The notes under the pieces: generated by a model
Told to the model about the DNA's origin: nothing
The model's database searches: none
Seen by the model: the letters and a program-made list of their open reading frames with translations, nothing else
Translations under genes and position numbers: made by a program
DNA from: Fibrobacterota bacterium
Lineage (GTDB): Bacteria; Fibrobacterota; Fibrobacteria; UBA11236
Assembly: GCA_043753995.1 (NCBI GenBank)
Contig: JAYUVP010000098.1
Span: 1-64,000 of the forward strand
Reading direction: 5' to 3'
Length of the DNA: 64,000 bases
Part shown: positions 1 through 42,150 of the stretch, one piece after another
Numbering within the stretch: position 1 is the stretch's first letter
Layout: the number at the start of each line of letters is the position of its first letter

Positions 1-1
1 C

Positions 2-3076: not shown

Positions 3077-3131
3077 TGGTGTTAGGCTTGAGTTCCCAGT
3101 TGCGCCGCGGAATTCCTATAACCACATTCCG

Positions 3132-3983: not shown

Positions 3984-4036
3984 GATTTGCTGGGATGGCT
4001 ACTCCCATTAGGCCGAAGGCTGCGCATAAGCAGCAC

Positions 4037-4100
4037 ATGCCCCGCAGGCTCGGCCCGAATGGCCCTGCAGCACTTGTCGGCCTCGCTTTCCTCCAAGAAA
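4037..4100 (+). repeat. REP-like dispersed intergenic element, copy 1
   Basis: ATGCCCC.CAGGCTCGGCCCG...TGGCCCT...CTTGTCGGCCTCGCYTTCCYCC.AAGAAA shared with 7656-7747; weaker inverted copy at 53346-53405. Confidence 0.7.
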
Positions 4101-4263
4101 AAATCCGGAAATACTTTATGCAATATTTGCATTGGTCGGGAATTCCCGTTTTCAGGCCCGCGCCCCGGAACTCGTTCCATCCGGGTGATTTAAACAAAGA
4201 TGAACACCCTGAATGTAGATTCGTGAAGCGCTTTGCCATCAGCTGGAAGAAAAAGGAGACGCT

Positions 4264-5178: not shown

Positions 5179-5214
5179 TACTTTCCGTAGCGATTGCGGA
5201 GGCTTGAGGCATTT

Positions 5215-5249
5215 GGGTCCGCTTGGAACTAAAGCGGAACCCTTGTCTT
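5215..5249 (+). terminator. Probable intrinsic terminator of 4264..5178
   Basis: GGGTCCGCTT-loop-AAGCGGAACCC stem followed by TTGTCTT. Confidence 0.45.
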
Positions 5250-5302
5250 GATTTGGAAATGACGCGCCTGTCTGAAACCTTTAGAATCGTTTACGCTCAA
5301 TA

Positions 5303-5442
5303 CCGGATTCCGTTAGGACGCGGAGATCCAATTCCACCTGATCCTCCGGCTTCTCCCAATGGAAAAACCGGTATTGGCTAGTACATAGGCGCAGCTTGGG
5401 CATGAAATTCCGGTTGACTAAGGATTTCATCAAGTCGGATTC
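5303..5442 (-). pseudogene. Remnant of the 3' end of a paralogue of 3132..3983
   Basis: Minus strand translates to ESDLMKSLVNRNFMPKLRLCTSQYRFFHWEKPEDQVELDLRVLTESG versus ECDLMKFLVYRNFIPKLRIRTSQYLFFLWEKPEDQVGFDLRVLPESG. Confidence 0.8.
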
Positions 5443-5469
5443 TTTATTCGATGTATTATGTTACAAAAA

Positions 5470-5796
5470 TTACAATAAGGATTTGCCTAGGGCGCCTCCC
5501 AGTTCCGCCTCCAACCCTTGGATGCGGGATAGGATGTCGCCCAGGGCCGCACCGTATCGGGTCAAGGCGTATTCGGTGCGCGGGGGAACTTCTGCGAATA
5601 CGCGCTTGTCCAGCAAACCGTAATCCGTCAGCTTGCGCAACCGCTCCGAAAGCACCTTGGTGGAAATGCCCTCGATATGCGCCTCCAGTGCACCGGGACG
5701 GTTGATCCCCTTTCGCACTGCCTCCAGCACCGACACCGACCACTTGCACACTATCACGTCTTCGAGTCGCTGATAGCCCTCGCGCGATTCTGCCAT
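5470..5796 (-). CDS. HxlR-family winged-helix transcriptional regulator
   Basis: CKWSVSVL, GISTKVLSERLRKL, EVPPRTEYALT motifs; start placed at MAESREG. Confidence 0.9.
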   Translation of the reverse strand: MAESREGYQRLEDVIVCKWSVSVLEAVRKGINRPGALEAHIEGISTKVLSERLRKLTDYGLLDKRVFAEVPPRTEYALTRYGAALGDILSRIQGLEAELGGALGKSLL

Positions 5797-5953
5797 ATTG
5801 TTCTTAATCGGATTTTTCTGTCTCATATGCGCCAATGATTTACCCCATAAAGTGCCCTCCCCACCGAATTGTGCCCGCTTTCCGCCTGCCGAACGCGAGG
5901 GCATATTCATCCCGCCGTCCCGGTTCGGGCTGGCCCAAAGGAAGGATAAAAAG

Positions 5954-6187
5954 ATGGATAAAGTAATCTTCTACCACGCTGGCTGCCCCGTTTGCGCTGA
6001 GGCTGAAACCAAGGTCGCTGCTGCCCTCGATCGTTCGCGCTATGCATTGGAGGTCGTGCATCTGGGGCTAGCGAAAGCGCGCATTCCGGAGGCCCGAAAG
6101 GCGGGTGTGAAATCCGTCCCCGCCTTGGTGCTGGACGGGCAATCCTTCCACATCAACTTTGGGGCCGATCTAAAAGATTTGGAGTGA
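5954..6187 (+). CDS. Small thioredoxin/glutaredoxin-like protein (CPVC)
   Basis: FYHAGCPVC and GVKSVPALV (cis-Pro) motifs; AAGGA RBS before ATG 5954. Confidence 0.85.
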   Translation: MDKVIFYHAGCPVCAEAETKVAAALDRSRYALEVVHLGLAKARIPEARKAGVKSVPALVLDGQSFHINFGADLKDLE

Positions 6188-6192
6188 ACCCT

Positions 6193-6223
6193 AGACCTCG
6201 ACCCGATACCGGTCGGGGTCTTC
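6193..6223 (+). terminator. Hairpin after the thioredoxin-like gene
   Basis: AGACCTCGACC / GGTCGGGGTCT 11-bp stem; weak U tail. Confidence 0.4.
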
Positions 6224-6414
6224 CCCTTCAAGGTCTTACAACAAGCCTCTGATTTCACTAAACCGATTTGAAATAAAACCGCAACCCGAATTTCTGAAAA
6301 CATTCCCGTTACACGTGATACATAACACGCTCGAGGAATATCCAATGGTCGCGAAGTTCACGGCCCTAAGCAGGTTACCGTAATTCGCTACAATCATCAA
6401 ACCAAGGATCGGTT

Positions 6415-7617
6415 ATGAAAAAGTTCGGATTATACGCGCTCTCGTTGGGATTCTCCTCCTTGTTATTGCAAGGGTGTTTCGAAACCCCTACTTCGGTCAG
6501 TGAAGATCAAACCCAGAACGAGCCGGTCTTGGCCAAAGCCGCGGCCGTCGCTGCTGCGGGTCCCGATTTGCTATTCACCATTGCCAAGGTCACGGGTTCC
6601 ACCGCCACGGGATTCAATTACTCCTACACTATCAAGAATCAGGGCACCGTAGCCATCCCTGATCTCTATAATGTTTCCATCCAAAACTTCTACTCCGCCA
6701 ACACCGTATTCAACGATGCAGGCGACGTAGCGGCGGGCGGATCCATACTCGGCGTTCATGTGGCTTTGGCTGCGGGCGCGAGCTATTCCGGTAACTTCCA
6801 TTCTTCGGGCGCCCTGCCTGCGGGCCTGAATTACCTAACCTTCAAGATTGACTGGGGCAATATCGTTGCCGAGTCGAATGAGAGCAACAATACCTATGCC
6901 CTGCTCGTTCGCCCTGATCTTAGCTTCACGGTGGCTGCCGTCACGGGTTCCACCGCCACGGGATTCAACTACTCCTATACCATCCGCAACAATGGCACGG
7001 TGGCGATAGCGGATCTCTATAATGTTTCTATCCAAAACTTCTACTCCGCCAATACCGTATTCAATGATGCTGGCGATGTAGCGGCGGGCGGATCCATACT
7101 CGGCGTCCACGTGGCCTTGGCTGCGGGCGCCAGCTATTCCGGCAACTTCCATTCTTCGGGCGCCCTGCCTGCGGGCCTGAATTACCTGACCTTCAAGATT
7201 GACTGGGGCAATATCGTCGCCGAGTCCAATGAGTCTAACAATACCTACGCCCTGCTGGTTCGCCCCGATTTGCAATTCATTAGCGCCGTGATCACCGCCA
7301 GGACGGCAACCCAGGTGAGATATTCTTATACCATTCGTAACAATGGCACGGTGGCGATTGCGGATCTCTACAATGTTTCCATCCAGAACTTCTACTCCGC
7401 CAATACCATCTTCAACGATGCTGGCGACGTGGCGGCGGGTGGATCCATACTCGGCGTTCACGTGGCCTTGGCTGCAGGCGCTAGTTATTCCGGCACCTTT
7501 TATTCCTCCGGCGCCGTACCTTCCGGGTTACCCTATCTCACCTTCAAAATCGATTGGGGCAATATCGTCGCCGAATCGAATGAAAACAATAATACCGTCG
7601 CTCGGCTGATTCCTTAA
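6415..7617 (+). CDS. Lipoprotein with three tandem CARDB-like domains
   Basis: Lipobox LLQGC; three 117-aa units PDL...YTIxNxGT...AESNExNN. Confidence 0.9.
   Translation: MKKFGLYALSLGFSSLLLQGCFETPTSVSEDQTQNEPVLAKAAAVAAAGPDLLFTIAKVTGSTATGFNYSYTIKNQGTVAIPDLYNVSIQNFYSANTVFNDAGDVAAGGSILGVHVALAAGASYSGNFHSSGALPAGLNYLTFKIDWGNIVAESNESNNTYALLVRPDLSFTVAAVTGSTATGFNYSYTIRNNGTVAIADLYNVSIQNFYSANTVFNDAGDVAAGGSILGVHVALAAGASYSGNFHSSGALPAGLNYLTFKIDWGNIVAESNESNNTYALLVRPDLQFISAVITARTATQVRYSYTIRNNGTVAIADLYNVSIQNFYSANTIFNDAGDVAAGGSILGVHVALAAGASYSGTFYSSGAVPSGLPYLTFKIDWGNIVAESNENNNTVARLIP
6562..7614 (+). repeat. 3 x 351-bp intragenic tandem repeat
   Basis: Units start at 6562, 6913 and 7264; cores are nearly identical. 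Confidence 0.95.
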
Positions 7618-7655
7618 TTTTCCGGGGGCTCAGCCACTCGTTCCGTGCCGTCCAA

Positions 7656-7747
7656 ATGCCCCCCAGGCTCGGCCCGCCCAAGGGCCAGTTAAGAAATAAC
7701 TGGCCCTAACCCTTCGCCCTTGTCGGCCTCGCCTTCCCCCGAAGAAA
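7656..7747 (+). repeat. REP-like element copy 2 with an internal perfect 11-bp hairpin
   Basis: Same flanks as 4037-4100; AGGGCCAGTTA-AGAAA-TAACTGGCCCT at 7681-7707. Confidence 0.7.
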
Positions 7748-7984
7748 GGCGCGAAAGTAGGATATAGCCCATTCTTTGCGTGATTACGTGATTAATATCA
7801 CTATTCGATTTGTATTTCTCCAGCGCCCGCTTGCCTCCCAGGCGTGAACTGTTCGCCCCAGGAGAACGGATTTTTCAGCTGTAGGAGCCAATTTTCCCCT
7901 GTGGCCGGCTGAGTTTAGAGAAACGGACTAAGTTCTTCGAGACCCGATCCAATACCCGCATACGGATCCGTCACGGAGGTTTTC

Positions 7985-10564
7985 ATGGCATTTCGAAAAT
8001 GGCCAGGAATCAGCTTTGCTTTGTTATTCGGCCCTTCCCTCGGGGCCGCCCAGGCCCAGTCTAGTTGGGCTCCGGTGGACGGACCCTCGCCTGCGGGCGT
8101 GAAGGCTGTCGTCTCCCTAGACAATGTCGTACTGGCCTCCAGTCCCCACCATATCTTCCGCACCTTGAAGACCGAAGGCCCTTGGAGCGACTCCCTGTTT
8201 CCGGAAGGCGTGAATCCGGATTTCATGCAAGCCCTGGACTCCCTGGTTTTCGCCGCCCAAGGGACCACGATATTCCGTTCAGCGGATCGCGGACTCACCT
8301 GGAATCGTACGGTTGAGACTGGCTTCTCGGGCTCGCCCCGTCGCATTTTCCGGTCGAGCGGATCCCTGGCCATGGTCACTACCGATGGACGATACCTGTC
8401 CTCCGCCAACCAAGGCGTCACGTGGACAGCTTATCAACAAAGCCCTTCGGGATATGCCTATAGCCAATTGCTGCTCCACGATTCTTTGCTCTTCGCGGGA
8501 ACAGATAATGGCCTCTATGTTTCGTCCAACCATGGAGCGAACTGGAAGCGATTGCGAAGCGGATTGCCCGCCGGCCAAATTATTCTACTTGAACGAATGC
8601 TGGGAAAGCTTTTCCTCGGCATTGGCGGGCAAGGGCTTTTCGTCTCCACTAATCTCGGTGAGACCTGGGCCAAGGTGGATGGAGGTCTGGCCAGGGCGAG
8701 AGTCGATTACTCGGGCGGGATGGGAATGGCAGCCAGCGGCAATCTGCTACTTCTTGCGTCAAGCGGGCCCGGCGGGGTTTTGGGCTCGCGTGATTCCGGT
8801 AAGACCTGGACGCCCTTCAATCAGGGTCTGCCTTCAAACCGACAGGGAGGCGTCACCCTATACACAAACTTCAATATTGTTTTCCAGGCCGATACGGCCT
8901 TTGTCTCCACTGCCGTGGGTGTCTACCGATCTACTAACGGTGGCGTGCAGTGGAGCGCGGTCAACCAAGGTCTGCCTCCTACATCAGATGCCTTCCTCGG
9001 ACTTGGCGCGGCAGGTGCGGACCTATACGCTTCCATCTATGACGAAGAGCAAGGCCACGCCTACCGTTCCAGCGATGGTGGGAGAAGTTGGAAAAAAGCC
9101 GACAGCCTTCTGGATGGCCTGCGGCGAATGCGTGCGGAAGAGAAAGACTGGTTCGCGATCACGGACCAGGGTATGGCGCACTCCACCGATAGCGGCAAGA
9201 CATGGGCTTCGGTGGCGGGGCCCTGGAAATCCAGCCAAGGGCCCATTGCCTTCGATTTCCGAGGGAACGATTTGGCGGTGGCCCATCACTTCGAAGGGGC
9301 CACCCTGTTCTGTTCTCCCGACAAAGGCGAGACGTGGAATGCCGAAGTGGAGAGTCGCCCCACGGCGCGATGGGGCGACTTGCATTTCCAAGCTATGGCC
9401 AATCGCCTACGCATTTCCACCGATGGCGGACGGACTTGGATCACTCAGTCCACGGTATTCCCGGAGGCCGTGATCGATCTTAAAGCCGGTACCGGGAATC
9501 TCGCCTTATTGTCCGACACCAGTCTCTTTGTCTCGTCGGATTCTGGCCGCACCTGGAAGCAACCCAGCGGCCTGATGGAAAAGCTGAGAGTCAATTCCAT
9601 TGCCATGGTCGGCTCCCGGCTCTATGCAGCGACCTGGAAAGGGCTGATGCTTTCCTTGGATGGAGGGATGCAGTGGAAAGTCCTCGCCCAGGGATTGCCC
9701 GTGGCCGATATCCAAGCTCTGGTCGCAAGCGAAGGGCGGCTTTTTGCCGCCGATGTCCAGGGACTCCATCTCCGCGAAGGAAGTGCGACAGGTTGGAAAA
9801 CCATCAACGCTGCGCCTGCGGGCATACAGCAGTTGGCGGTTTGGAAGAATGGGGTACTGGCTGGCACACAAAGCGGGCGACTTTGGATGTCCAAGGACGG
9901 AGGAACGACTTGGGCATCGACCGGAGATACGGTTTCCGGAAGGCCCATCCTTTCCCTGGCCATGGGCCCTGGACTGGCCTTCGTCTCCAAGTCTAACGGC
10001 CTATTCCGCACCTCCGACAGTGGAAAGACTTGGGAACCGGTTTTGTCGGCCGACATCATTCCGGCTCCAACCTCCATTGCTCTCGGAAACGCATTTCTCT
10101 ATGCGGCGTCAGGATACAATTCGTATCGCTCCCGGGACGGGGGATTGCATTGGTCGCTTCTGCCCAGGCCTAGGGATTGGGTGCCGCGTTATTTGGTCGC
10201 CGAGGGCGGTGAACTGTATGGTGCCGATGACAATGGGGTCCATTCGAGCCAGGACCAAGGAGGCCAGTGGGCATGGGCTTCTCCGCCCATCCCGTTCAAT
10301 CCTGTCGTGCGCTTGGCCTATGCGGGTGGGCGGGTTTATATCGCGGGTTCGGGTGGTACCGGGCTTTATGTCCTTGAGCAGGCTCCTACCGGGCTCCTGG
10401 GCCATGCGCCAGGGGTTCTCGCCGAGGACATACGCCTGGGAAGGCAGGGTGGAAAGGCGGTTTTCCGGTGGGGTTTACCCAGTCACGGACCGGTGGGTGG
10501 GAAGATCTATTCGGCGACAGGAAGGCATGTCGACACCGATGCAATGCGAGGGGTGAAGCCATGA
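7985..10564 (+). CDS. Secreted BNR/Asp-box (VPS10/Ycf48-like) beta-propeller protein
   Basis: Signal peptide; more than 12 SxDxGxTW motifs; C-terminal tail GKIYSATGR. Confidence 0.9.
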   Translation: MAFRKWPGISFALLFGPSLGAAQAQSSWAPVDGPSPAGVKAVVSLDNVVLASSPHHIFRTLKTEGPWSDSLFPEGVNPDFMQALDSLVFAAQGTTIFRSADRGLTWNRTVETGFSGSPRRIFRSSGSLAMVTTDGRYLSSANQGVTWTAYQQSPSGYAYSQLLLHDSLLFAGTDNGLYVSSNHGANWKRLRSGLPAGQIILLERMLGKLFLGIGGQGLFVSTNLGETWAKVDGGLARARVDYSGGMGMAASGNLLLLASSGPGGVLGSRDSGKTWTPFNQGLPSNRQGGVTLYTNFNIVFQADTAFVSTAVGVYRSTNGGVQWSAVNQGLPPTSDAFLGLGAAGADLYASIYDEEQGHAYRSSDGGRSWKKADSLLDGLRRMRAEEKDWFAITDQGMAHSTDSGKTWASVAGPWKSSQGPIAFDFRGNDLAVAHHFEGATLFCSPDKGETWNAEVESRPTARWGDLHFQAMANRLRISTDGGRTWITQSTVFPEAVIDLKAGTGNLALLSDTSLFVSSDSGRTWKQPSGLMEKLRVNSIAMVGSRLYAATWKGLMLSLDGGMQWKVLAQGLPVADIQALVASEGRLFAADVQGLHLREGSATGWKTINAAPAGIQQLAVWKNGVLAGTQSGRLWMSKDGGTTWASTGDTVSGRPILSLAMGPGLAFVSKSNGLFRTSDSGKTWEPVLSADIIPAPTSIALGNAFLYAASGYNSYRSRDGGLHWSLLPRPRDWVPRYLVAEGGELYGADDNGVHSSQDQGGQWAWASPPIPFNPVVRLAYAGGRVYIAGSGGTGLYVLEQAPTGLLGHAPGVLAEDIRLGRQGGKAVFRWGLPSHGPVGGKIYSATGRHVDTDAMRGVKP

Positions 10565-12528
10565 AAGTCTCAAGACCCGGAAAATTCCTTTTCCTGTTTT
10601 TGTCGGTTTCGCTCTCCTTAATTTCGGCTAGGGCTGCCCAGCTCAACTGGAAAAAAGTGGCTGGCCCGGAAGGGGGAGACATTCAGGGGCTCGCGGCCTC
10701 GGGGGATACCGTTATGGCGACCACCGCCCAGGGGGACTATTACCGATCTAGCGATGGAGGCAAGTCCTGGTCGCTGCTATACCGCAGGGTGGCACTGGAT
10801 TATGGATACTTCGGCCCATTGAGGATGGAACCGCTTTTTCTGGGCGACCGGATTTTAGGCACCGACGGCATGGGTAGCCTCCTGCTATTCCAGGGGGGCC
10901 GCACCGATCGCATTCCGCTCAATCCGCCCGACCCTTTCCCAATTTATCGGCCGGTCAGTTTTTTCCAACAGGGCAATGGCTTGTTTGCCTTGTCAGGGGG
11001 TATTTCCGCATCCGCTGACAGCGGAAAGACCTGGACATTTCGAACCGATATGCTGGGGGATCGGGGGCCGGTTTCCGACTTGGCCGGTGACGGGACATCC
11101 CTCTATGCCATGAATGGAACCGGGGATCTTTTTGCCAGCCAGGATCAAGGCCAGACTTGGTCCTCGATTCGCAATGACCTCGGACGTGAGGTCTCCTTCG
11201 GGGGATTGGTGGGCCTGCCTGGAGGCCTCATGGCGTGGTGGCAAGACGGGGAAATCCTAAGGCTTCGCCGTCAGGGGGACAGCTTGCTCGCCTCTTCCGC
11301 CAAACTCCCAGGCCGGGGACCTTGGAGGGTGCGCTGTATCGGAAGCAAGCTATTCGCCTCGGGATCTCTGGGTATATCCCAATCCTCCGACGGCGGTCTC
11401 ACGTGGACTTTGTTGACCAGCGCGCCCCCTAATTCCATCCAGGCCTTGGTGGAAATTCCGGGAGGGCATTTCTTAGCGGGAACCCGTGACGGCCTTTATT
11501 TATGGAACCGGCTCACGGGCCAATGGAGCCTATCCCAGTCGGGGCTCAAAGCCGTGGAAATTCAATTTCTCGCGAAACAGGAAAACGCCCTGCTGGCCCT
11601 CGGCCATCATACCCTGCATCGCTCTCCTGACGGCGGAGCCACATGGCATCGCATTTTCGCCCCGGGCATAGCCATGTTCACCAAGCTGGTCTCCCTATCA
11701 CCCGATTTCTTGGTCTTCGACGATTCCGCTAGGATTTTCCCAGTAGGTCCGGGCGACACTCTGGGAAAGGACATTTCACGGGAATTCCCCGCCGTCCGGC
11801 CCCAGGACTTGGGACGTTCGGGAAGGCATTGGATAACCATGGCTTCCAACGGTGTGTCGCATATCTCTCATGACAATCGAAAGGCATGGTCGGCCGTGGA
11901 TACCCTTGTGACTTTCAGGCCGCTTATCCGTATGGCCATGCAAGGCTCGCGCATCATCATGCAAGGCCCCAAGGATTCGGTTAGGTATTCTCTAGACACC
12001 GGATTTACCTGGAAAATCGCGCCTCCACCCGCAAGACAGAATCTTCAGATGACCCTTTCCGGCAAGATTTGGCTGGCCACCGGGGGCGGGCTATTCCGGA
12101 GCGAGGATCCCACCGCTGGCTGGGAAACCGTTGCACTAGGACAGGCCGGCGCCCGGGTCCAGAGCTTGATCCGAAACGGAATAACCCTGTTTGCGACCAC
12201 CGATATCGGTCTCTATGCCAGTGAGGATCATGGAGCCACTTGGGAAAGCGTGTTCACCGGAATGTTACGGAGCGAATTCGAAACGCTGAAAACCGGCGCA
12301 ACCGTGCTATGGGCTAAGACCGAAACGGGGGCTTGGTGGGTGGCTGGCCTTGAGGAAACATCGCCGACCAGCGTTCGTGCCCAAGCCTCTCCTTCCGGTT
12401 CCGATTTGCCTCGCCTCAACCGCCCCCCTGGGCGATCGAAGCAGGCCATTCAGGACTTGCGGCGGAAACCCCCTGCTCGGCAATATGTCTACCCCGTTTC
12501 CGCAAACGGTAGGCGAATCATTTACTAA
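10561..12528 (+). CDS. Second secreted BNR/Asp-box beta-propeller protein
   Basis: Start MKVSRPG overlaps the upstream stop (ATGA); signal peptide; many SxDxGxTW motifs; basic tail ending SANGRRIIY. Confidence 0.9.
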   Translation: MKVSRPGKFLFLFLSVSLSLISARAAQLNWKKVAGPEGGDIQGLAASGDTVMATTAQGDYYRSSDGGKSWSLLYRRVALDYGYFGPLRMEPLFLGDRILGTDGMGSLLLFQGGRTDRIPLNPPDPFPIYRPVSFFQQGNGLFALSGGISASADSGKTWTFRTDMLGDRGPVSDLAGDGTSLYAMNGTGDLFASQDQGQTWSSIRNDLGREVSFGGLVGLPGGLMAWWQDGEILRLRRQGDSLLASSAKLPGRGPWRVRCIGSKLFASGSLGISQSSDGGLTWTLLTSAPPNSIQALVEIPGGHFLAGTRDGLYLWNRLTGQWSLSQSGLKAVEIQFLAKQENALLALGHHTLHRSPDGGATWHRIFAPGIAMFTKLVSLSPDFLVFDDSARIFPVGPGDTLGKDISREFPAVRPQDLGRSGRHWITMASNGVSHISHDNRKAWSAVDTLVTFRPLIRMAMQGSRIIMQGPKDSVRYSLDTGFTWKIAPPPARQNLQMTLSGKIWLATGGGLFRSEDPTAGWETVALGQAGARVQSLIRNGITLFATTDIGLYASEDHGATWESVFTGMLRSEFETLKTGATVLWAKTETGAWWVAGLEETSPTSVRAQASPSGSDLPRLNRPPGRSKQAIQDLRRKPPARQYVYPVSANGRRIIY

Positions 12529-15500
12529 CCGTGACGGTAAAGGCGCTGGTCGCGCCTCCATCCGTCGCCACCAAGGTGATGATGGCCACGCCTTTCTTCT
12601 TGGCCTTGACGTCATGTCCTTTTACGGATGCGATATTGGGCGAGTCCGAAATCATGGTAAAGGCGGTATTTCCCGAATTGGCGGGCGTGAAAACCGGGAT
12701 GATGGTGGCGGAGTCTCCATCTACCAAGGCCAGATCCGGAGCGGAAATGGTTTGGACCGGTACCCTGACCGTGACGGTGAAGGTGCTCGAAGGCCCGTCC
12801 GCGGACGTGACGGTGAGGATGGCGGTTCCGCCCGCGACGGCATGCAATTGGTTGCCCACCACCGAAACCACGGTGGGGGCTGCGCTGACCAGGGTATAGG
12901 CTTTATTCGTCGCATTGGCGGGTGTGAAGGTGATCACGGGTGCCCTATCCGCTGCACCCAGGACCATGGCCACGTCGGGAGAAGCGATGTCCGTCACGAG
13001 TATTGCGGGAATCGATACGGTGACGGTGAAGGTGCTGGTAGGCCCATCCGCCGAGGTCACCGTGAGGGTGGCGGTGCCTCCCGCGACGGCATGTAATTGG
13101 TTGCCCACCACCGAAACCACGGTGGGGGCTGCGCTGACCAGGGTATAGGCTTTATTCGTCGCATTGGCGGGTGTGAAGGTGATCACGGGCGTCCTATCCG
13201 CTGCACCCAAGAGCATGGCCACGTCAGGAGCGGCAATGGCCGTCACGAGGGTTACAGGAGTCGATACCGTGACGGTGAAGGTACTGGACGGCCCGTCCAC
13301 CGAGGTAATGGTTAAGGTCGCCGCGCCCGCCGTGACGGCATGCACTCTGGTGCCAACGACGGAAGCCACCGTTGTGTCGTCGCTGGACAAGGTATAGGCT
13401 TTATGAGTTGCTGCCGCAGGAAAGAAAGCAACCGTTGGGGACGCATCGGCTGCGCCCAGGAGCAAGCCCATAGGGCTAGCGGAAATGGCGGTCACCAAGG
13501 TAACTGCCGTGGTCACCGTAGCCTGGAAGGTACTGGTTGGTCCATCCGCGGAAGTGAGGGTAATGATAGCCGTTCCAGCCGCAACGGCATGCAGCTTATT
13601 AGCTACGACGGAGACCACGGTAGGAGAGGCACTGGCGAGGGAATAGGTCTTATTGGTGGCGCCAGCCGGGGTATAGGTCACCACGGGTGATGTATCCGCG
13701 CCTCCGAGGATCAAGGCCACATTTCCAGCGGAAATGGCGGTCAACCCCACCGAAACCGTGGCTCGGAAGGTGGTTGTCGGCCCATCTGCGGCGGTGACGG
13801 TAATGACGGCGGTTCCGCCCCCGACCGCATGCAATTGGGATCCGGATACGGACGCCACTCCTGGAGACGCGCTCGTCAAAGAATAGGCTTTATTGGTCGC
13901 GGCTGCGGGAATGAAAGAAACCGCCGGGGTAATATCCGGGGCGCCCAGGGCCAAGGCCACGTCGGGGGAGGTAATGGAGGTGGTACGTACCGTGACCGTG
14001 ACCCTAAAGGTGGCCACCGGTCCATCGGCGGAGGTGATGAGGATGGTCGCGGTTCCTCCGGCCCCCGCATGAAGTTGGTTGCCGACTACGGAGACCACGG
14101 TGGGCGCATCGCTTTTGAGCGTATAGGATTTGTTGGTAGCCGATGCGGGAGCGAAGGTTACGAGCGGAGTGAAATTCGGGGAACCAAGCACCACAGCTTG
14201 ATCGGCTGACGAAACGGCCGTCGTTCGCACCGTCACGCCAACTCTGAAAATACTCGAAGGGCCGTCCAGGGAGGTGATTGTGATATTCGCATTGCCACCG
14301 GAGACCGCATGCAATTTCGCGCCGGAAACGGAAACCACATTGATATTATCGCTCTTGAGGGTGTACCCGCGATTGGTGACAATCAGTGGCAAGTAGGAAA
14401 CCTCGGGGGCTAGGTCGGAACCTCCCAGTACCAGACCCAAGTCTTTGGCCGAGATGGCAAGCACCGGAATGGTCAGAATGGGAGCGGGCCTTACCGTGAC
14501 TGAGAAGACCGCCGTGAGCCCCTTGCCCAGGGTTTTGAGGGTCACGTCGGCGTTACCAGCCGCGATCGGTTTGCATTTCGGAACCCCGCCTTCCATCACC
14601 ACGAGCACCTTACCAGGATCGGAGCTGGTCAGAGCATAACTGCGATTGGTCACATTGGAGGGAGTCCAGGTAATCATGGGGGCTTGCGCAGCCCCGTCCG
14701 CGATCATTTCCAGGGAGGCCGCGCTGACCGCAGTTTCGTAGTGGTTGGTGTCGGTGACAAGGACATTGGCCTGGAATTGTGTCATGAATCCCCCATCATC
14801 ACTCCGCGCTCGGATGGTGGCGGATCCGGGCTTCAAGGGAATGAGGTCCATGCCGGAAACCTTGACCGTGGTCTCATCTAGGCTTTGCAGGGAATAACCC
14901 TGGTTCGCGGCATCCCGGGGCAGGATGGAAACCGAGGGCCTGGCCTTTTGCACGCCCATCGGGATATAAATCGCTTGCGCCTCGATTCCGGTCACGGCGG
15001 TCACTTTAGGTGGCACCACTACGGTATCGCGGATGGTATCGCGAGGTGGAATGACAACGACGGGTGTGGTGTCTAGGGGAGGTAGGACGACTGGCGTCGA
15101 GTCCTTGGGTGGTAGGACGACGGGTAAGCTGTCCTTGGGTGGAAGGATGACGGGGGTAGAGTCTTTAGGCGGAACGAGGATAGGTGTGGAGTCCTTAGGG
15201 GGTAGGACAACGAGTAGGGAATCCTTGGGAGGGACGGCAACCTGTATGGAGTCCTTGGGGGGGGGGACAACCGTAATACTGTCTTTCCTGGGTGGGGCGA
15301 CAGGGAGGGTGTCCACCCGAGGTAGGCCCGCAATCACGTTTGCGGCTTGAATCGCCGCATTCTCCTTGGCCAGCCGCAAGCATTCCGTGGGAGTATCCTT
15401 GCAGTTACGGGCATAGGCTTCCACGCTATCCGCTATCCCGTTACCGTCTAGGTCTCGCTTCCATTCCTCGCTGATGGCATCGGAATCGGAAAGGAATGGG

Positions 15501-35965: not shown

Positions 35966-36994
35966 ATGAAAAAGCCCCCGCCCTTCGATCCCCAAACCCT
36001 GGCACTGACCGAATCCCTGTTAGATTCGGCTGGGGTCCAGGGGGATGCCTTTCAGCGTCAATGGATTGGAGAGATGATTCATTCCGTCCTGCAACTCGGC
36101 CTCGATGGGCCCGATTCGGGGGAAGTGAAGCTCATGGCCAGGAGCTTCCGAGAATTGCGACATGCTTTAAATGTCTTCCGGCCTTACAAGGGCCGTAAGA
36201 AAGTGTCCATATTCGGATCGGCGCGCACACCACCGGATCATCCCGATTATCTCTGCGCGCGCGATTTCGCTGCGTCCATGGGAAGGCGGGGTTGGATGTC
36301 CATCACGGGGGCTGGCCCAGGCATCATGCAGGCGGGCAATGAGGGGGCGGGGCCGGGGAATTCCTTCGGGCTGTCCATTCGGCTGCCTTGGGAGACCAAT
36401 GGCAATCCCTTCATCGCCAAAGATTCCAAGTTCATGGTCTTCCGGTATTTCTTCACGCGGAAGCTTCTCTTCGCCTTGGGTGCCGATGCCATGGCAGTTT
36501 TCCCCGGGGGATTTGGCACGCTCGATGAATGCTTCGAGCTGCTGACCTTGATTCAAACCGGCAAATCCCCGCTCCTCCCAATCGTCTTGATTAGCCCGGA
36601 GGGAAATGATTATTGGAAGTCTTTCCGAACCTATATGGAAGACCACTTTGTCCGTAATGGCTGGATCAACCAGGAAGATTTGTTTTTGTTCCAGATCTTC
36701 TCTGACGTGGAAGCCGCATCCGATTATGTGGAACGATTCTACCGGAATTACCACTCGTCCCGATTCGTTGGCGATCAATTCGTGATCCGCATGCAGAAAA
36801 CCCTAAAACCGGAAGAACTTGAGTCCTTGAACGAGGCTCATGCGGGGCTATGCGTCAAGGGCTATATCGACCAGGGAGTGGCCTTGAAAGGGGAAGAGGA
36901 TTTCCTGGATTTGCCCCGCCTGGTTTTCCAATTCAACCGGAAGCATTATGGTGGGCTTCGGCTCATGATTGACCGGCTGAATCAGTTTGGCTGA
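35966..36994 (+). CDS. LOG family (TIGR00730-like) nucleotide phosphoribohydrolase, long form
   Basis: FGSART, TGAGPGIMQAGN, YFFTRK, PGGFGTLDE. Confidence 0.9.
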   Translation: MKKPPPFDPQTLALTESLLDSAGVQGDAFQRQWIGEMIHSVLQLGLDGPDSGEVKLMARSFRELRHALNVFRPYKGRKKVSIFGSARTPPDHPDYLCARDFAASMGRRGWMSITGAGPGIMQAGNEGAGPGNSFGLSIRLPWETNGNPFIAKDSKFMVFRYFFTRKLLFALGADAMAVFPGGFGTLDECFELLTLIQTGKSPLLPIVLISPEGNDYWKSFRTYMEDHFVRNGWINQEDLFLFQIFSDVEAASDYVERFYRNYHSSRFVGDQFVIRMQKTLKPEELESLNEAHAGLCVKGYIDQGVALKGEEDFLDLPRLVFQFNRKHYGGLRLMIDRLNQFG

Positions 36995-37025: not shown

Positions 37026-37835
37026 TTAATAGCCTAACTTTTTAAGGCGCGCTTTCACTTCGCGCGCGTTCCGATAGGGTGGCGCATGGATTTTTCTGAA
37101 GGGACTGGCCCAAAGTTCGGCATGCTCCTTTTCCGAAGCCTCATTGCACCCCACGGTATAGCCGAACCTTTGATTTAGCTTAGATAAAGGTTTCAGTGAA
37201 TCGCCTTTTGCAGCGGTAAGATCGTCAAAAAAGTAGGTATGGTAATAGGTGTCACACCCATTATTACCTCCATGGCTATTGATGGCTGTTCTGATCAAGA
37301 TTCCTATTTCTTGTTTGGGGTCGCGGTCAGCGTTGGCAAAAACCACGGCTTGAATTTCGCCTTTCCCACCTGAGTCTCCAAAGGCTTCCATGGCAAAACG
37401 TCGGCACGCATTCGACCTTTGGTGGGTCGGAACGAAAACGTATCCATTGGTACGGCTCGAAATCTCTGGTTCTGGTGACAAGGAATACTTGATCCAAACC
37501 TTGGTGATCTTTTCATTGAAAAAACCGACAACAATAGGCGTGGAATTCCAAACAGTATCCATAGCCAGCATATACTCTGGCTTCCCATACCAAGTTGTAT
37601 CGGGATCGGTTGGCTTGCTTTTCAAATGCAAAGGGTGGATGACGGGGTCGATTGCATAGACGAAATCCGTATCCCTAATTCCATTGGCAGACGAGGGCTT
37701 GGCTTCGATAATACCGAGAAAAAAAGCCAAGATCATGGCTGTGACGTTGATGAGGTAGCCGTCTTTATAGCAAAGTCTTCCACGATCGGCCTTTTCATAA
37801 GCTATCCGATGAGAGAGAGGCCGGCTGGAGGGCAA
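37026..37835 (-). CDS. Hypothetical exported protein (start probably near 37736)
   Basis: Long ORF, hydrophobic MILAFFLGII segment, FANADRDPKQE motif. Confidence 0.6.
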   Translation of the reverse strand: MPSSRPLSHRIAYEKADRGRLCYKDGYLINVTAMILAFFLGIIEAKPSSANGIRDTDFVYAIDPVIHPLHLKSKPTDPDTTWYGKPEYMLAMDTVWNSTPIVVGFFNEKITKVWIKYSLSPEPEISSRTNGYVFVPTHQRSNACRRFAMEAFGDSGGKGEIQAVVFANADRDPKQEIGILIRTAINSHGGNNGCDTYYHTYFFDDLTAAKGDSLKPLSKLNQRFGYTVGCNEASEKEHAELWASPFRKIHAPPYRNAREVKARLKKLGY

Positions 37836-37917: not shown

Positions 37918-38844
37918 CTATCCTGGTGCGTTTCCAGCCGGGTCCAAAGCTAATGCATTCCTAGGCACCGCCGCCGCAAAATGGGCCAATAGCCCGACTC
38001 CGAGCCCGCCTAAAACATCCACGGCATAGTGATACCCGCAATATACAGTCGAAGCGATGAGCAGAATTCCCAAGGGCCAGAGCACTACTCTTTCCGGTTT
38101 GTGATGCCATGAAGCCAGCAAGGTGACCGTGGTCAAAGCCACGTGGGCGCTGGGGAAATAGCCACCCGGAATTTCCCACTGGTATAACCAATGCATGATA
38201 GATGTGAAGGCATAACCCGGCATTTCGGTGGGGTGTTGTAAGGCACTGGCAGGCGTAAAATTTGCAAAGGAATGCGGGCCCAAGGCGGGAAGGAAGAGAA
38301 AAAGAAAATTGCAGATGTAAAAGGCGATGCCTATGGCAGCCATGAATCGATGAAATTCGGCGACGCGCTTTTTGCGGTAGTAAAGGACGAGAGCCAATCC
38401 AGCGAACTGGACGTAATAGGTGAAATACGCGAAGTGAAAAATTTCGGAAACCCAGGCCTGTGGCCAAACTTGCGACCACAGCAAGGCAGGTTGAAATCCG
38501 AAAAGCATTTGATCGGCATTGCGAAGAATCATATCCCATTCGAAGGCAACCCAAAACCGGTTCAGGGTTCCTACCTGTTCGTAAATGGGTAAGAAAAAGA
38601 AAAACGGATAAAACAATCGGACAAAGCGTGAAATGGATTGCCCTCTACGCGAATGCTCGTCGTCACCCGAGGGAGATGCGAATCTGCAAATGACATAGGC
38701 GCAGCCAATGGCAAAGGCATTGAAAGCAAAAGGCGCAAGCGGTGCATCCATCGCCCAGGCCCGTACTCCGACGACTAGCAAGACCGCGAAGTGGTAACCG
38801 AAGAATAAGAGGTCGGCGGGAAAAACTCTGAACCCGGCTTTCAA
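37918..38844 (-). CDS. PAP2-superfamily membrane protein (AUR1/IPC-synthase-like, PAP2_3 type)
   Basis: DQMLFG, YFTYY, LPALGP, FPSAHVA, STVYCGYHYAVD. Confidence 0.85.
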   Translation of the reverse strand: MKAGFRVFPADLLFFGYHFAVLLVVGVRAWAMDAPLAPFAFNAFAIGCAYVICRFASPSGDDEHSRRGQSISRFVRLFYPFFFFLPIYEQVGTLNRFWVAFEWDMILRNADQMLFGFQPALLWSQVWPQAWVSEIFHFAYFTYYVQFAGLALVLYYRKKRVAEFHRFMAAIGIAFYICNFLFLFLPALGPHSFANFTPASALQHPTEMPGYAFTSIMHWLYQWEIPGGYFPSAHVALTTVTLLASWHHKPERVVLWPLGILLIASTVYCGYHYAVDVLGGLGVGLLAHFAAAVPRNALALDPAGNAPG

Positions 38845-38847
38845 TTT

Positions 38848-40518
38848 TTACCCGCTCAGTCTCGACACGGAAAATGGCTCGGCATAGACTGGAGCGTCGG
38901 ACAAAATGTTCAAGTTTGCTTGGGACTGAATTTCGAATTCGATTTGGAACCAAAGAGCTTGCAATGCTTCGAAGCGTACCTCGCCCATCATACAGATTTG
39001 CAACCAGTTGCGCTTGACGAGATAGTCTCCGGCATAATTGCAGAGCAAGCCGCATTTTTCCAAGCGGCGTCCCAAGCCGAGGGAGGAAATTGATTCGGGG
39101 AATTGCAAGGTGAATATTCCAGGTGCGCGGTTTTCGGTGGCTGCGATCAAAAGGATAGGCGATTCGACCATGCGTTCCATCAGCCACGCGCCCATTTCTT
39201 TGCGCCGGGAAAATAGTCTTGCTTTCGTGGTTTGCAATGCCGCCACAAGGGCTTCCAGAAACACAGAGGAGCCGCTGAAGGGAATGCCATCACAGTCGGC
39301 ATAGTAACGCAATTCGAAATAGCGCGGCTTTGGCGCGGCGGACTTCATTAAGGCTTCGGGACGGTAAAAGACCATGGCCATGCCGGTCAAGGCGCCAATA
39401 GCCTTGCCGCTGACCGAGGAAGCCATGCGCGCGCGGCTAAAGTCGCAGGGGATGGCGCCAAGGGAACTGATAGCGTCCCAATGCGTATGCACGCCATGCC
39501 TATCGCAAAGCGATTGAATAGCCTCCAGCGGTTGCACTTGGCCCGTCGACGTTTCGCAGTGCACGGACCAAAGCCAGCGGATATTCGTATGCGTGCGCAG
39601 GGCCTTTTCCAAGGCGTCGAGCGAGGTGGCGTGCCCCCAGGGCGAACGCAGAATATGAGCATTCAGGTGATGAGCCTCGGCATGCTTGACTAGGCGTTCG
39701 CCGAATTCCCCATTACAGAGAATAATGCCTTCACCTCCGAGTTCGGCGATATGGGCGGCCACCACATCATTGGCCAGAGTCCCCGTGCCCAAGAAAATTT
39801 CAACTGCCTGGCCTTGGGTCATGGCCAGAAGCAGGCGCTTCGCTTTCTGCAATTGAGCAACATAACGTTCGGATCGATGGGAGTATGGGGGCACTTGCAA
39901 GGCTTGTCGAACAGGCTCTTGAACTTCAACGGGGCCAGGCAGGAAGTAATGCTGTGGCACTAATATGTCTGGAGCTTGTCGCAAGGTGTCGGGCAGGAGA
40001 GCTAAATGCCGATTGAGCGAATCGAGTGTCAAGGACATGGGTTGATACATGGCTCCAGGTATGCCGACTTGCGGGCCGAAAGCGAGAAAGCCCAACTTTT
40101 CATAAAGGGGAATATTTTCCAAACGGCCCGAGATGAGGCCTCGGTTGAAACCTTGAACGGTGCTATAAGCAAGGATTTCGTGCATGAGCAAGGCAAAGAC
40201 GCGCCCATGCCGGCGACTGGGCTCTATCGCGAGGAGCCTGATTTCACACAGCGAATCTCCTGGTTTCAAAAACACATCAAGGTTGTCGAGCTTGGAGTCC
40301 AGAGAAAAGGGCCGCTGATTGCGCAAGGCCACCATGCCTGCAATTTCGTCTCCGTCTTTGCAAATGAAATAGAGGTTTTCCCGGTGGAATTTATCGACAA
40401 GGCGCCGATCGGTATTGCGGGCATGCTGAGGAATTTCTTCGACAAAGGTGGCATAATTCAGTCGCGCGATGCGATCGAATTCATCCGCTTGATCGGCAAT
40501 TTTCACAATCAGACTCAT
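38848..40518 (-). CDS. Fusion of GNAT-fold N-acyltransferase and class V PLP aminotransferase (N-acyl serinol synthase-like architecture)
   Basis: N-term LNYATFVEEIPQH...CEIRLLAI...LYEKLGF; C-term FLPGPV, SHRS, NGEFGERL, HCETSTG, DAISS, SGKAIG. Confidence 0.85.
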   Translation of the reverse strand: MSLIVKIADQADEFDRIARLNYATFVEEIPQHARNTDRRLVDKFHRENLYFICKDGDEIAGMVALRNQRPFSLDSKLDNLDVFLKPGDSLCEIRLLAIEPSRRHGRVFALLMHEILAYSTVQGFNRGLISGRLENIPLYEKLGFLAFGPQVGIPGAMYQPMSLTLDSLNRHLALLPDTLRQAPDILVPQHYFLPGPVEVQEPVRQALQVPPYSHRSERYVAQLQKAKRLLLAMTQGQAVEIFLGTGTLANDVVAAHIAELGGEGIILCNGEFGERLVKHAEAHHLNAHILRSPWGHATSLDALEKALRTHTNIRWLWSVHCETSTGQVQPLEAIQSLCDRHGVHTHWDAISSLGAIPCDFSRARMASSVSGKAIGALTGMAMVFYRPEALMKSAAPKPRYFELRYYADCDGIPFSGSSVFLEALVAALQTTKARLFSRRKEMGAWLMERMVESPILLIAATENRAPGIFTLQFPESISSLGLGRRLEKCGLLCNYAGDYLVKRNWLQICMMGEVRFEALQALWFQIEFEIQSQANLNILSDAPVYAEPFSVSRLSG

Positions 40519-41048
40519 AGGCGTGACTCCGGGTCCGAGACGTTTTTTTCAGAGGGATTGGATTGCCAAGTCAGTCGGTTCTTCGCCAAATGCGATCGGT
40601 GAGCGAAAAGGACGAGGGCCAGGGTGGCGAGGCACGCGCCGATGACCGAAAGTGCATGGCCGCTGAAATGAATCCGCGGACTATAGATGGCCAAGGCAAG
40701 GGCTCCGCCCGCGGCAACCGACACACCTTTGCCACCGCGAAAACCCATTTGAACCGGGTAAATATGCCCGATGACAAGGCATGGCAAAGACCAAAAGACA
40801 TGGGCCGAATGCGGAACTAAGGCCAAACCAAAAGCGATACCCGCCCAAGCCTTAAGGAAGTCGCCAGCAAAGGTGACAGTAAAGCCGGATGGCCCTAAGA
40901 GTCGCCCGACATTGCGCGCGCCTGTCGATCCGCTACCGAATTCACGTATGTCTTGGCGACGCGTGAGGCGCACCCAGTAATAGCCCGTATTGAAGCAGCC
41001 TAAGGCATAGGCGGCAAGCCAGGCGAGGGCATGCAGGGTTTCGCTCAT
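40515..41048 (-). CDS. plsY: PlsY-family glycerol-3-phosphate acyltransferase paralogue
   Basis: DIREFGSGSTGARNVGR, DFLKA, GHIYP..GFRGGKGV, HRSHL; ATGA overlaps at both ends. Confidence 0.85.
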   Translation of the reverse strand: MSETLHALAWLAAYALGCFNTGYYWVRLTRRQDIREFGSGSTGARNVGRLLGPSGFTVTFAGDFLKAWAGIAFGLALVPHSAHVFWSLPCLVIGHIYPVQMGFRGGKGVSVAAGGALALAIYSPRIHFSGHALSVIGACLATLALVLFAHRSHLAKNRLTWQSNPSEKNVSDPESRL

Positions 41049-41587
41049 GGGGAATGGAAGGAGTAAACTTCGCCCCACACCGGCCTCACCGGGACATGCC
41101 CCACATAACCGCGGCGGATCAAGCGCTGTTGGAGGTATTGCATGAGGAAGCCATGGGTCACGAGAAGGATGTTTTGCGAAGTATGCATTTCCTCTAATTC
41201 GTCCAGCAAGGCGTCAAGGCGCTGAAAAGTCTGCTCACGATTTTCGGTTTGTGAAGGGTGGGGAAGACGCCAACCGAGGCGACTCAAGGCTTGCCAAGCC
41301 AATAGAGGCAAGGGTATTTCGGTTTTGAAAAGGGGTGCAAAAGGCACTTCGCGCAAGGACTCGTGGACCGCGATGTCGCCGTGGAACAATGCCTGGGCCG
41401 TCTTGTGCGCCCGCGGCAAATCACTGCTATAACAGATGTCCCAGCCTTTGAGCGGTTTTAAAACCAAGGGTATTGCGACATCAAAGCGATCATACCATTG
41501 CGACCAATCGACAAAGCCCCGGCTATTCATCCATTGGTATTGGGGGTGCGGTATGCGGAAATGGCGCATCAAGCCTAGGGTATTCAT
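41045..41587 (-). CDS. Histidine phosphatase (phosphoglycerate mutase) family protein
   Basis: LMRHF, SSDLPRA..TA, LREVP, LLVTHGF. Confidence 0.85.
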   Translation of the reverse strand: MNTLGLMRHFRIPHPQYQWMNSRGFVDWSQWYDRFDVAIPLVLKPLKGWDICYSSDLPRAHKTAQALFHGDIAVHESLREVPFAPLFKTEIPLPLLAWQALSRLGWRLPHPSQTENREQTFQRLDALLDELEEMHTSQNILLVTHGFLMQYLQQRLIRRGYVGHVPVRPVWGEVYSFHSP

Positions 41588-41662
41588 AAGATTCGGAATA
41601 TAGGACGCATCCAAGTCGGTAGGTGTTCCCAAACCCTCCACACCTTATCGGTGGCGATCGAA

Positions 41663-41979
41663 TTACTTCATTTCTCGAAGAAATTTGAGCGCTGCCCCAT
41701 GTTGGCTTAGAATATCCCCGCTGATATAAACCGAAATGGCCGCCTTGCGCGGAGGGAAACCAATCCGAAGCCAGTCCACGTCCCTCCCCGAAGTCGGGCT
41801 CTTAAGTTTGACTAGGCCAAAACCAATGAGGGAGGTACCCCACATTCTCGGTTCTTCCATGCTGGCCTTCTTCATCATTTCTAAAAGCGCAAAACTATCC
41901 TAGCGCTGTTGCACGCCTTTTACGCAATGAGAAATTTCTCAACGCTGGCGCCATTCGGCTTGGTTTTGTTTTCGGCCAT
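41663..41979 (-). pseudogene. DUF1801-family pseudogene
   Basis: AGGAG RBS then MAENKTKPNGASVEKFLI, frameshift near 41922, in-frame TAG at 41900-41902, then EPRMWGTSLIGFG...GFPPRK; C-terminus truncated. Confidence 0.85.
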
Positions 41980-42150
41980 CGAATTCTCCTAAACGATCCA
42001 TTTGACCAAGGTAAAAAATCATGGTGGCAGCCTTAGGGTAATACCCCATTTCAGCGGCCCCGAAGTGAAGCGACCTTAGTTTCCGTATTCGCCCTTGTTT
42101 CGGAACCTGAATTCGCAGGTGCAATCCAGGAAGGGAAATAGGTTCCAATT

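Follow-up and report, generated by a model that had tools for sequence, protein, structure and literature searches.

Several described systems resemble, each in part, the one reported here. An enzyme of Gemella is reportedly an N-acyl synthase fused to an aminotransferase that makes N-acyl serinol, and its catalytic glutamate is said to lie near residue 94. In the synthesis of ornithine lipid (OlsB/OlsA) and glycine lipid (GlsB/GlsA), an N-acyltransferase and an O-acyltransferase together give a diacylated amide lipid; it is an amino acid that is acylated in these systems, and a 3-hydroxy fatty acid that is esterified by an enzyme of the PlsC type. Here we examine four coupled minus-strand genes in a 64,000-nucleotide stretch of DNA from a Fibrobacterota bacterium (lineage UBA11236; GenBank assembly GCA_043753995.1, contig JAYUVP010000098.1, positions 1 to 64,000 of the forward strand), referred to throughout as the window, in which an N-acyl synthase (NAS)/aminotransferase fusion lies directly downstream of a paralogue of the acyltransferase PlsY. 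We judge the chances to be even that this operon builds a membrane lipid on a serinol-phosphate instead of a glycerol-phosphate backbone, as a mimic of ceramide or diacylglycerol.

Two precedents bear on individual steps of such a pathway. By itself, the nas gene of Gemella haemolysans gives N-oleoyl serinol in Escherichia coli (excerpts of PMC13012048), and in RtxA from Bradyrhizobium elkanii the domain at the N-terminus is a dihydroxyacetone phosphate (DHAP) aminotransferase that makes serinol phosphate, with serinol accumulating in E. coli expressing it (excerpts of PMC3222319). RtxA catalyses the very reaction proposed here as the first; however, it serves rhizobitoxine synthesis and not a lipid, and is likened to the window aminotransferase by reaction, not by homology. 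The window fusion shares with the Gemella enzyme (nas, hm-NAS) a PF13444/FeeM-type domain and a conserved glutamate and, by what is said of that enzyme, the joined aminotransferase; the two are likened by domain content and not by direct alignment of their sequences, and no Gemella sequence occurs among the homologue and genome matches listed for the fusion. Whereas nas has been studied as a single gene with a mono-acyl amide product (PMC13012048, in the passages concerned), the window fusion has translationally coupled neighbours, namely a paralogue of PlsY, a phosphatase and an AUR1-like PAP2_3 protein. It differs from the OlsB and GlsB systems in that the amine would be made in situ by the fused transaminase, and in that its partner is of the PlsY type.

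The fusion belongs to a known enzyme kind, and the novelty of the window lies in the shortened form of PlsY, in a phosphatase and an AUR1-like protein as partners, and in a four-gene order that recurs elsewhere. Our literature searches found nothing that links serinol lipids or NAS enzymes to PlsY, or that describes serinol-based diacyl lipids, and no paper describing the full pathway, in agreement with an earlier interpretation made from the letters of the DNA (hereafter the sequence-only reading), which knew of no description of it. The word 'serinol' is absent from two recent aminolipid reviews at the level of their search listings, the passages at hand of two reviews (PMC10666787 and PMC13501127) hold nothing on the enzymology, and for PF14378 only unrelated papers were found.

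The PlsY-like gene and the fusion as a recurring pair

The features of the operon, from its upstream end, are as follows.

41045..41587, minus strand: histidine phosphatase (His_Phos_1, branch 1), 180 residues from the ATG at 41587; the longest open reading frame, 41045-41641, begins with a GTG at 41641 and encodes 198 residues
40515..41048, minus strand: PlsY-like acyltransferase paralogue, shortened, 177 residues from the ATG at 41048; the longest open reading frame, 40515-41078, begins with GTG and encodes 187 residues
38848..40518, minus strand: two-domain fusion, 556 residues, ATG start
39994..40518, minus strand: N-terminal FeeM/GNAT-type N-acyl synthase of the fusion, about residues 1-175
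40243..40245, minus strand: codon of Glu92 (in CEIRLL), candidate general base of the N-acyl synthase domain
roughly 38940..39951, minus strand: C-terminal class-V pyridoxal phosphate (PLP) aminotransferase of the fusion, about residues 190-525
39403..39405, minus strand: codon of Lys372 (in SGK), candidate PLP Schiff-base lysine
37918..38844, minus strand: PAP2_3 membrane protein, candidate phospho-headgroup transferase or alternatively lipid phosphatase, 308 residues, TTG start

The four open reading frames were confirmed at these positions, and the domain calls and tight coupling of the sequence-only reading are borne out both by Pfam and by the junctions. The ATGA overlaps, read from the sequence, lie at 41048-41045 (phosphatase and PlsY-like genes) and 40518-40515 (PlsY-like gene and fusion), and the TAA stop of the fusion (38850-38848) is followed by AAA and then by the TTG start of the PAP2_3 gene at 38844, a gap of 3 bp. 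All the families concerned scored over their cut-offs: His_Phos_1 (PF00300) at 50.9 bits against 21.7, PlsY (PF02660) at 92.8 against 24.1, FeeM at 41.1 against 27 and Acetyltransf_5 (PF13444) at 31.7 against 22.4, both over residues 17-162 of the fusion, Aminotran_5 (PF00266-type) at 37.3 against 21.5, and PAP2_3 (PF14378) at 70.7 against 27. None of the four proteins reaches a named NCBIfam equivalog.

The core module of this operon, which the sequence-only reading missed, is the pair formed by the PlsY-like gene and the fusion, and this pair is widespread in bacteria, the Bacillus cereus group included. A protein search with the fusion gave 3981 homologues at E <= 0.001 (8000 scored), among them proteins 80% and 72% identical, and a genome scan gave 676 relatives, of which 79 loci were retained. 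When these were searched with a hidden Markov model of the fusion-linked copies, 53 of the 75 assessable loci proved to have a PlsY-like gene directly upstream on the same strand; 22 had none, and the other four were ended by a contig edge. Metagenome contigs contributed 13 more loci, none closer than 55% identity, with a PlsY-like neighbour in three, none in five and five not assessable. By record title the positive loci span at least 10 phyla, and include Bacillota, Verrucomicrobiota, Planctomycetota, Desulfuromonadales, Desulfobulbus, Gemmatimonadota, Methylomirabilota, Nitrospirae, Lentisphaeraceae, Burkholderiales, Anaerolineales and Fibrobacteria. In the B. cereus group the gene stands upstream in 10 of 11 loci, the eleventh (L036) being cut by a contig edge. 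The co-conservation that the sequence-only reading had envisaged for all four genes is graded: it holds for the pair and, in each of the five Fibrobacterota carriers, for the set of phosphatase, PlsY-like gene and fusion; the full four-gene order was found outside the window in one genome only, G027.

Some loci depart from this arrangement. The genome of one locus lacking the PlsY-like neighbour (G005) holds only PlsY of canonical level, and that of another (G004) has no PF02660 match at all; taken with the 22 negative loci, this implies that the fusion works without a PlsY-like partner. No downstream protein was common to the loci without the PlsY-like gene, which share pairwise relatives only. 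Other O-acyltransferases adjoin or replace the PlsY-like gene elsewhere: one of the LplT-Aas type lies directly upstream in L042, triple fusions occur in L006 and L011, and a PlsC-like gene is found in L004. The LPLAT-type enzymes adjoining the fusions of L042 and L004 have a weak similarity to OlsA, a further likeness to the ornithine and glycine lipid systems. The Aas-type fusions, which join an LplT-like MFS domain to an LPLAT domain (plus an acyl-acyl carrier protein synthetase), occupy L006:1948-5373, L011:1860-5267 and L042:338-2266; they stand beside the pair in Desulfuromonadales, and in a Burkholderiales metagenome-assembled genome one replaces the PlsY-like gene.

Stand-alone N-acyl synthases of about 190 residues, with no aminotransferase, were also observed, in two Anaerolineales metagenome-assembled genomes (L013:2266-3413 and L047:5377-6558) and in L107-L109. 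They are 57-59% identical to the N-terminal domain of the window fusion, are preceded by a PlsY-like gene, and adjoin ethanolamine-utilisation genes (EutN, EutA) and a DAO/BFD-type oxidoreductase, which suggests that the pairing of PlsY-like enzyme and N-acyl synthase can use an amine supplied otherwise. A large DUF2339 membrane protein adjoins the fusion in three unrelated lineages (L031, L042 and L064), accompanied in L064 by a DUF3999 protein.

Within the fusion itself, the glutamate that the sequence-only reading had placed at residue 92 and the lysine of its SGK stretch are both where it put them, and both are invariant. Glu92 is retained in 16 of 16 sequences of each of two alignments and aligns to a glutamate of the LuxI-type synthase, and Lys372, likewise kept in 16 of 16 aligned homologues, stands opposite the SQK lysine of the alanine-glyoxylate aminotransferase 1vjo, the top sequence match in the PDB (E 7.9e-26). 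These two are among 98 positions of the first sequence that are invariant across 16 diverse members. A profile of the N-terminal domain matched in the PDB a LuxI-type autoinducer (acyl-homoserine-lactone) synthase, 5w8a (E 5.7e-4), as well as generic GNAT proteins, and none of its 37 PDB matches was a chain named FeeM. The aminotransferase half is nearest to the alanine-glyoxylate, serine-pyruvate and 2-aminoethylphosphonate transaminases, and the top NCBIfam match of the fusion, PhnW-AepZ, reaches only 134.2 bits of the 360.8 that its cut-off demands.

A separate clade of PlsY-like enzymes

The term PlsY paralogue, used in the sequence-only reading, proves correct. The window copy matches profile positions 2-117 of 164 in PF02660 and falls short of the PlsY equivalog cut-offs (NF001254, 72.2 against 199; TIGR00023, 67 against 137.2), whereas a canonical full-length PlsY is encoded elsewhere in the genome, on contig C291, at 177.1 bits over profile positions 1-164 (the window copy scoring 92). 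PlsX, which makes acyl-phosphate, is also present in the genome (298.2 bits). In three other genomes with both types, the copies adjacent to the fusion score 117-133 bits, as against 168-191 for the others, and a maximum-likelihood tree, from a quick search with a small canonical set, split 59 fusion-linked sequences from eight canonical ones by one branch (SH-aLRT 100). No PlsY-like protein fused to a longer protein was found at E <= 1e-8 among 8000 scored, which is weak evidence on the point.

Structural work on the Aquifex enzyme permits a reading of the residues that differ. Its glycerol 3-phosphate (G3P) is held by a phosphate clamp of Ser35, Arg45, Lys104 and Asn180, the 2-OH is liganded by Ser142 and His177, acyl-phosphate is bound by His92 and Thr41, and the Asn180His substitution nearly abolished activity (excerpts of PMC5700162). 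Aligned to Aquifex aeolicus PlsY (5xj5), the fusion-linked copies (n = 54) and the canonical ones (n = 8) compare as follows.

Ser35, phosphate clamp: 54 of 54 linked copies
Arg45, phosphate clamp: 54 of 54 linked copies
Lys104, phosphate clamp: 52 of 54 linked copies
Asn180, phosphate clamp: 29 of 54 linked copies
His92, acyl-phosphate binding: 54 of 54 linked copies
His177, 2-OH ligand: 45 of 54 linked copies
Thr41: Arg in 38, Lys in 4 and Thr in 12 linked copies (Arg or Lys in 42 of 54); Thr in 8 of 8 canonical copies

The retention of the clamp residues together with the change of Thr41 to arginine or lysine fits a phosphorylated acceptor that is not G3P, and the alignment suggests that the clade is an acyl-phosphate-dependent enzyme acting on such an acceptor. 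The window copy, like the reference enzyme, matches PF02660 and keeps Ser35, Arg45, His92, Lys104, His177 and the GGKG loop; unlike it, the copy sits in the separate clade below the equivalog cut-offs, has arginine at Thr41 and histidine at Asn180, and is shortened, with 42 residues between Lys104 and His177 in place of the usual 71-72, so that the stretch from the GGKG loop to the C-terminal HR motif is about 30 residues shorter and the region of Ser142 is deleted or unalignable. The sequence-only reading overlooked this shortening. Four metagenomic homologues of 65-81% identity share this short form, which argues that it is maintained under selection and not freshly broken.

The proposed lipid and its alternatives

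The two remaining genes of the operon would finish the proposed product. The phosphatase is predicted to be soluble, its PF00300 match begins at position 44 of the profile, and it carries an 'MRHF' at residues 6-9 of the 180-residue form that is conserved in G027. Stretches reading RH, SDLPRA, LREVPF and THG, which we take to be the catalytic motifs of histidine phosphatases, are present in its translation. An identity as CobC (alpha-ribazole phosphatase) was rejected, TIGR03162 scoring 27.3 against 162.9. The two-domain fusion occurs in five of 296 Fibrobacterota genomes, the window's own included (G000, G020, G027, G277 and G274), and in all five the phosphatase and PlsY-like genes lie directly upstream of it, a count and gene order that rest partly on G274, which is flagged unpublished; G277 and locus L003 appear to be one record. 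No relative of the window phosphatase was found outside Fibrobacterota in the 79 loci, and its position next to the fusion is specific to the Fibrobacterota loci. The four-gene order recurs once, in G027, which belongs to a different family and whose fusion is 39% identical and phosphatase 42% identical (176 residues, E 2e-55) to those of the window, and a PAP2_3 gene is downstream in these two of the five carriers. The other upstream genes differ among carriers, with an MMPL-type lipid exporter in L003/G277 and a radical-SAM protein in G020, which is of the same family as the window.

For the PAP2_3 protein, the sequence-only reading had proposed an AUR1 type, and at the level of the predicted fold this is supported. 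The family has 1976 relatives at E <= 0.001, and across 71 aligned homologues only G189, P231, S232, H234, H272 and D276 are invariant; a C1-type Lys/Arg-Pro motif is not conserved among them. A His-His-Asp set with no such C1 motif marks the transferase branch. As a single-sequence fold was unusable (pLDDT 46.5), an alignment-based AF2 model was employed (pLDDT 89.3, pTM 0.90). Its top Foldseek matches were an inositol-phosphorylceramide (IPC) synthase, 9vj4_A (E 8.1e-5, TM 0.58/0.63), and Aur1, 9ivc_A (E 6.4e-4, TM 0.57/0.53), and VIA-align gave the same two at Z 19.4 (rmsd 3.5, 243 residues) and Z 19.0 (rmsd 3.6, 251 residues), respectively. The alignments with these IPC synthases begin at about residue 1-12 of the model and run to about 294, so that the AUR1-type call is supported as a fold, albeit at an identity of only 14%. 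Lower down were LpxE (Z 16.3, 162 residues), G6PC1 (14.1), PgpB (13.2) and a sphingomyelin-synthase-related protein (11.1), the PAP2 phosphatases covering only about residues 100-300. By sequence the protein found weak PAP2 phosphatase matches only in the PDB (best E 0.0012), and only clusters named 'PAP2 family' in the ESM Atlas. Compared with the AUR1-type IPC synthases (9vj4, 9ivc), it thus shares PF14378, the invariant His-His-Asp set and the fold over its whole length, whereas it differs in its low identity and its bacterial host.

A second line of comparison comes from the Bacillaceae, where at 13 loci the fusion is directly followed by an LtaS-family protein; these proteins are mutually related at E <= 1e-193, and three that were scanned score 622-648 bits on the NCBIfam LtaS model, below its cut-off of 970. 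LtaS enzymes take glycerol phosphate from phosphatidylglycerol and attach it to a hydroxyl of a lipid. The LtaS-like protein would, by this analogy, be a second and unrelated type of enzyme that puts a phospho-alcohol on a lipid hydroxyl, and it lends comparative support to a lipid that receives a headgroup. The loci concerned are L016, L021, L023, L024, L027, L033, L035, L041, L051, L053, L058, L070 and L080 (about 7580-9450 in each), and the paralogues, of 598-640 residues, overlap or abut the 3' end of the fusion, with an extra PAP2 gene following in L021.

Given these components, it is reasonable to postulate the following pathway, all of whose substrates and products we infer. The aminotransferase domain would convert DHAP to serinol phosphate, and the FeeM-type N-acyl synthase would acylate the amine with a fatty acyl chain, Glu92 acting as base. 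The PlsY-like paralogue would use acyl-phosphate to esterify one hydroxyl, giving a phosphatidic acid analogue with an amide link; the two acylations may come in either order. The histidine phosphatase would then remove the phosphate to leave N,O-diacyl-serinol, a ceramide- or diacylglycerol-like molecule, or might instead have serinol phosphate, or the N-acylated form of it, as its substrate at an earlier stage. Last, the AUR1-like PAP2_3 protein would take a phospho-headgroup from one of the resident phospholipids and pass it to the free hydroxyl, so that the end product would carry one amide-linked and one ester-linked chain. The serinol-lipid reading draws on a fusion with the domains of the N-acyl-serinol enzyme type, the precedent of RtxA for the DHAP step, the dedicated PlsY-like clade upstream of the fusion across phyla and its residue pattern, PlsX in the genome, alternative O-acyltransferases at the same place, the phosphatase in all five carriers and the four-gene order in G027; its headgroup step draws on the nearness of the PAP2_3 model to IPC synthases and on the LtaS-like proteins of Bacillaceae.

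The least unlikely alternative accepts this chemistry as far as diacyl-serinol phosphate and differs in taking the PAP2_3 protein for a lipid-phosphate phosphatase and not a headgroup transferase, so that the pathway would end in a neutral lipid free of phosphorus, or in a substrate for other headgroup enzymes that are encoded elsewhere. The good structural matches of LpxE and PgpB speak for it, as do the additional match to PF01569 (PAP2, 30.8 bits; PAP2_C is also matched, at 26.2) and the occurrence of PAP2_3 downstream in only two of the five Fibrobacterota carriers. However, the protein has the conserved residue pattern that we associate with the transferase branch, the IPC synthases are its top matches and alone cover the N-terminal 100 residues as well, the operon already has a second phosphatase, and in Bacillaceae it is a transferase of the LtaS type that occupies the equivalent position. 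We hold this alternative to be fairly unlikely, whether in its neutral-lipid form or in that with headgroup enzymes encoded elsewhere.

It is also conceivable, if unlikely, that the fusion alone makes a mono-acyl N-acyl serinol, surfactant- or signal-like, as reported of the gut Gemella enzyme, on which its neighbours do not act. The PlsY-like protein would then be a surplus G3P acyltransferase or a degenerate one, and ordinary hydrolysis of phosphate or lipid phosphate, for example of serinol phosphate to serinol, would be the task of the two proteins of phosphatase families; we rate these roles for the neighbours as equally unlikely. The sufficiency of the Gemella nas gene in E. coli (PMC13012048, as excerpted) agrees with such a product, and so do the 22 loci lacking the PlsY-like gene, the shortened window copy with its Asn180His change, and several Bacillaceae genomes with three or four PF02660 genes. 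Against this, the PlsY-like genes beside the fusions group in a single clade distinct from the canonical enzyme, with a shared change of Thr41 to arginine or lysine; their place directly upstream is kept in at least 10 phyla; the short variant persists among homologues with as little as 65% identity and so is under selection; and other O-acyltransferases take the same position in some loci.

An equally improbable alternative holds that the amine is another one (2-aminoethylphosphonate from phosphonoacetaldehyde, phosphoserine or serine, or glycine) and that the PlsY-like enzyme esterifies that product or a hydroxy-fatty acid. The best NCBIfam match of the fusion is to a 2-aminoethylphosphonate aminotransferase family, its PDB matches include alanine-glyoxylate, serine-pyruvate and 2-aminoethylphosphonate transaminases at a similarity from which the substrate is not readable, and the NAS-only relatives beside ethanolamine-utilisation genes (L013, L047) indicate that the synthase may accept other amino alcohols. 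However, all named-family scores are far below their cut-offs, the sole tested enzyme called nas gives a serinol amide (PMC13012048, in the relevant excerpts), and a PlsY-type partner best fits a three-carbon phosphate backbone. The phosphonate form in particular is disfavoured, as no phosphoenolpyruvate mutase (TIGR02320) was found in the 97%-complete genome and de novo phosphonate synthesis is therefore unlikely.

Several considerations weigh against the serinol-lipid reading itself. The lipid product is a prediction for every member carrying the PlsY-like/fusion pairing, the fusion is likened to the Gemella enzyme by domain content, and the amine of the proposed lipid is taken to be serinol on the strength of sequence, where the nearest named families of the aminotransferase use 2-aminoethylphosphonate or glyoxylate and not DHAP. 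The counted loci include 11 from the B. cereus group and 13 from Bacillaceae and so are not independent, and 22 of the 75 assessable ones are without the PlsY-like neighbour. The window copy, shortened and with histidine at Asn180, could be inactive or of other function. An IPC-synthase-like fold, itself modelled, does not prove transferase activity; the linkage of PAP2_3 rests on two genomes, and the two proteins are barely alignable (31% over 62 residues, E 0.038), so that independent or chance recruitment is possible.

A broader proposal, possible though doubtful, is that of a widespread and undescribed class of serinol-phosphate lipids, in which the dedicated PlsY clade and the fusion, with lineage-specific enzymes, would give sphingolipid-like phospholipids with no serine palmitoyltransferase. 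We would suggest, as tentatively, that the class occurs in bacteria as far apart as soil Verrucomicrobiota and the B. cereus group, and that it is finished by a histidine phosphatase and an AUR1-like protein in Fibrobacterota and by LtaS-like proteins in Bacillaceae. If true, many bacteria would make a second membrane-lipid backbone, with an amide replacing the sn-2 ester, reached by re-using the first enzyme of phospholipid synthesis; ceramide-like lipids would be possible without serine palmitoyltransferase, and PlsY, an antibiotic target, would have a specialised clade that does not act on G3P. The sole studied relative has been seen as producing signals directed at the host, yet free-living bacteria are where the family mostly occurs. 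Harmless carriers in culture include Cytobacillus, Virgibacillus, Halobacillus and Planococcus, and in these the hypothesis is directly testable.

Genome setting and neighbouring sequence

The assembly to which the window belongs, as contig C98, comprises 5.2 Mb and is 97% complete. The fusion protein of G020 is 100% identical to one labelled 'MAG: Fibrobacteres bacterium' at NCBI, in keeping with a Fibrobacterota host. Two DNA runs contain the stretch, both metagenomic and from one sediment study, and these may be the source of the window; no RNA sequencing run containing it is listed. A scan for promoters and terminators was at the level of chance, with four promoter-like sites where 3.9 were expected and six terminator-like ones where 8.3 were expected. 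The start codons have support from homologues: the phosphatase ATG at 41587 agrees with the G027 orthologue, which aligns from residue 3, and the PAP2_3 TTG at 38844 agrees with the homologue P0167, aligned from residue 1, as well as with a confident N-terminal helix in the model.

About 80 bp 3' of the PAP2_3 gene lies a 269-residue open reading frame (37026-37835, minus strand) with a hydrophobic N-terminal stretch, which falls into no Pfam or NCBIfam family; nothing corresponding to it follows the G027 operon. On the other side, between the operon and a divergent gene of the glycogen-debranching type (42151), the minus strand at 41663-41980 holds short open reading frame pieces broken by stops, among them one of 71 residues with no Pfam family, and these pieces may be a gene remnant; a DUF1801 origin for the 71-residue piece was considered and not confirmed. 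At 35966-36994 on the plus strand is a 342-residue protein of the LOG/TIGR00730 family (Lysine_decarbox domain) with extensions of about 75 residues at the N-terminus and about 85 at the C-terminus beyond the model. The GC fraction rises from 0.43 (1-2000) to 0.61 (12001-14000), most of the remaining window being at about 0.51-0.57, and positions 1-14000 may thus be a compositional island.

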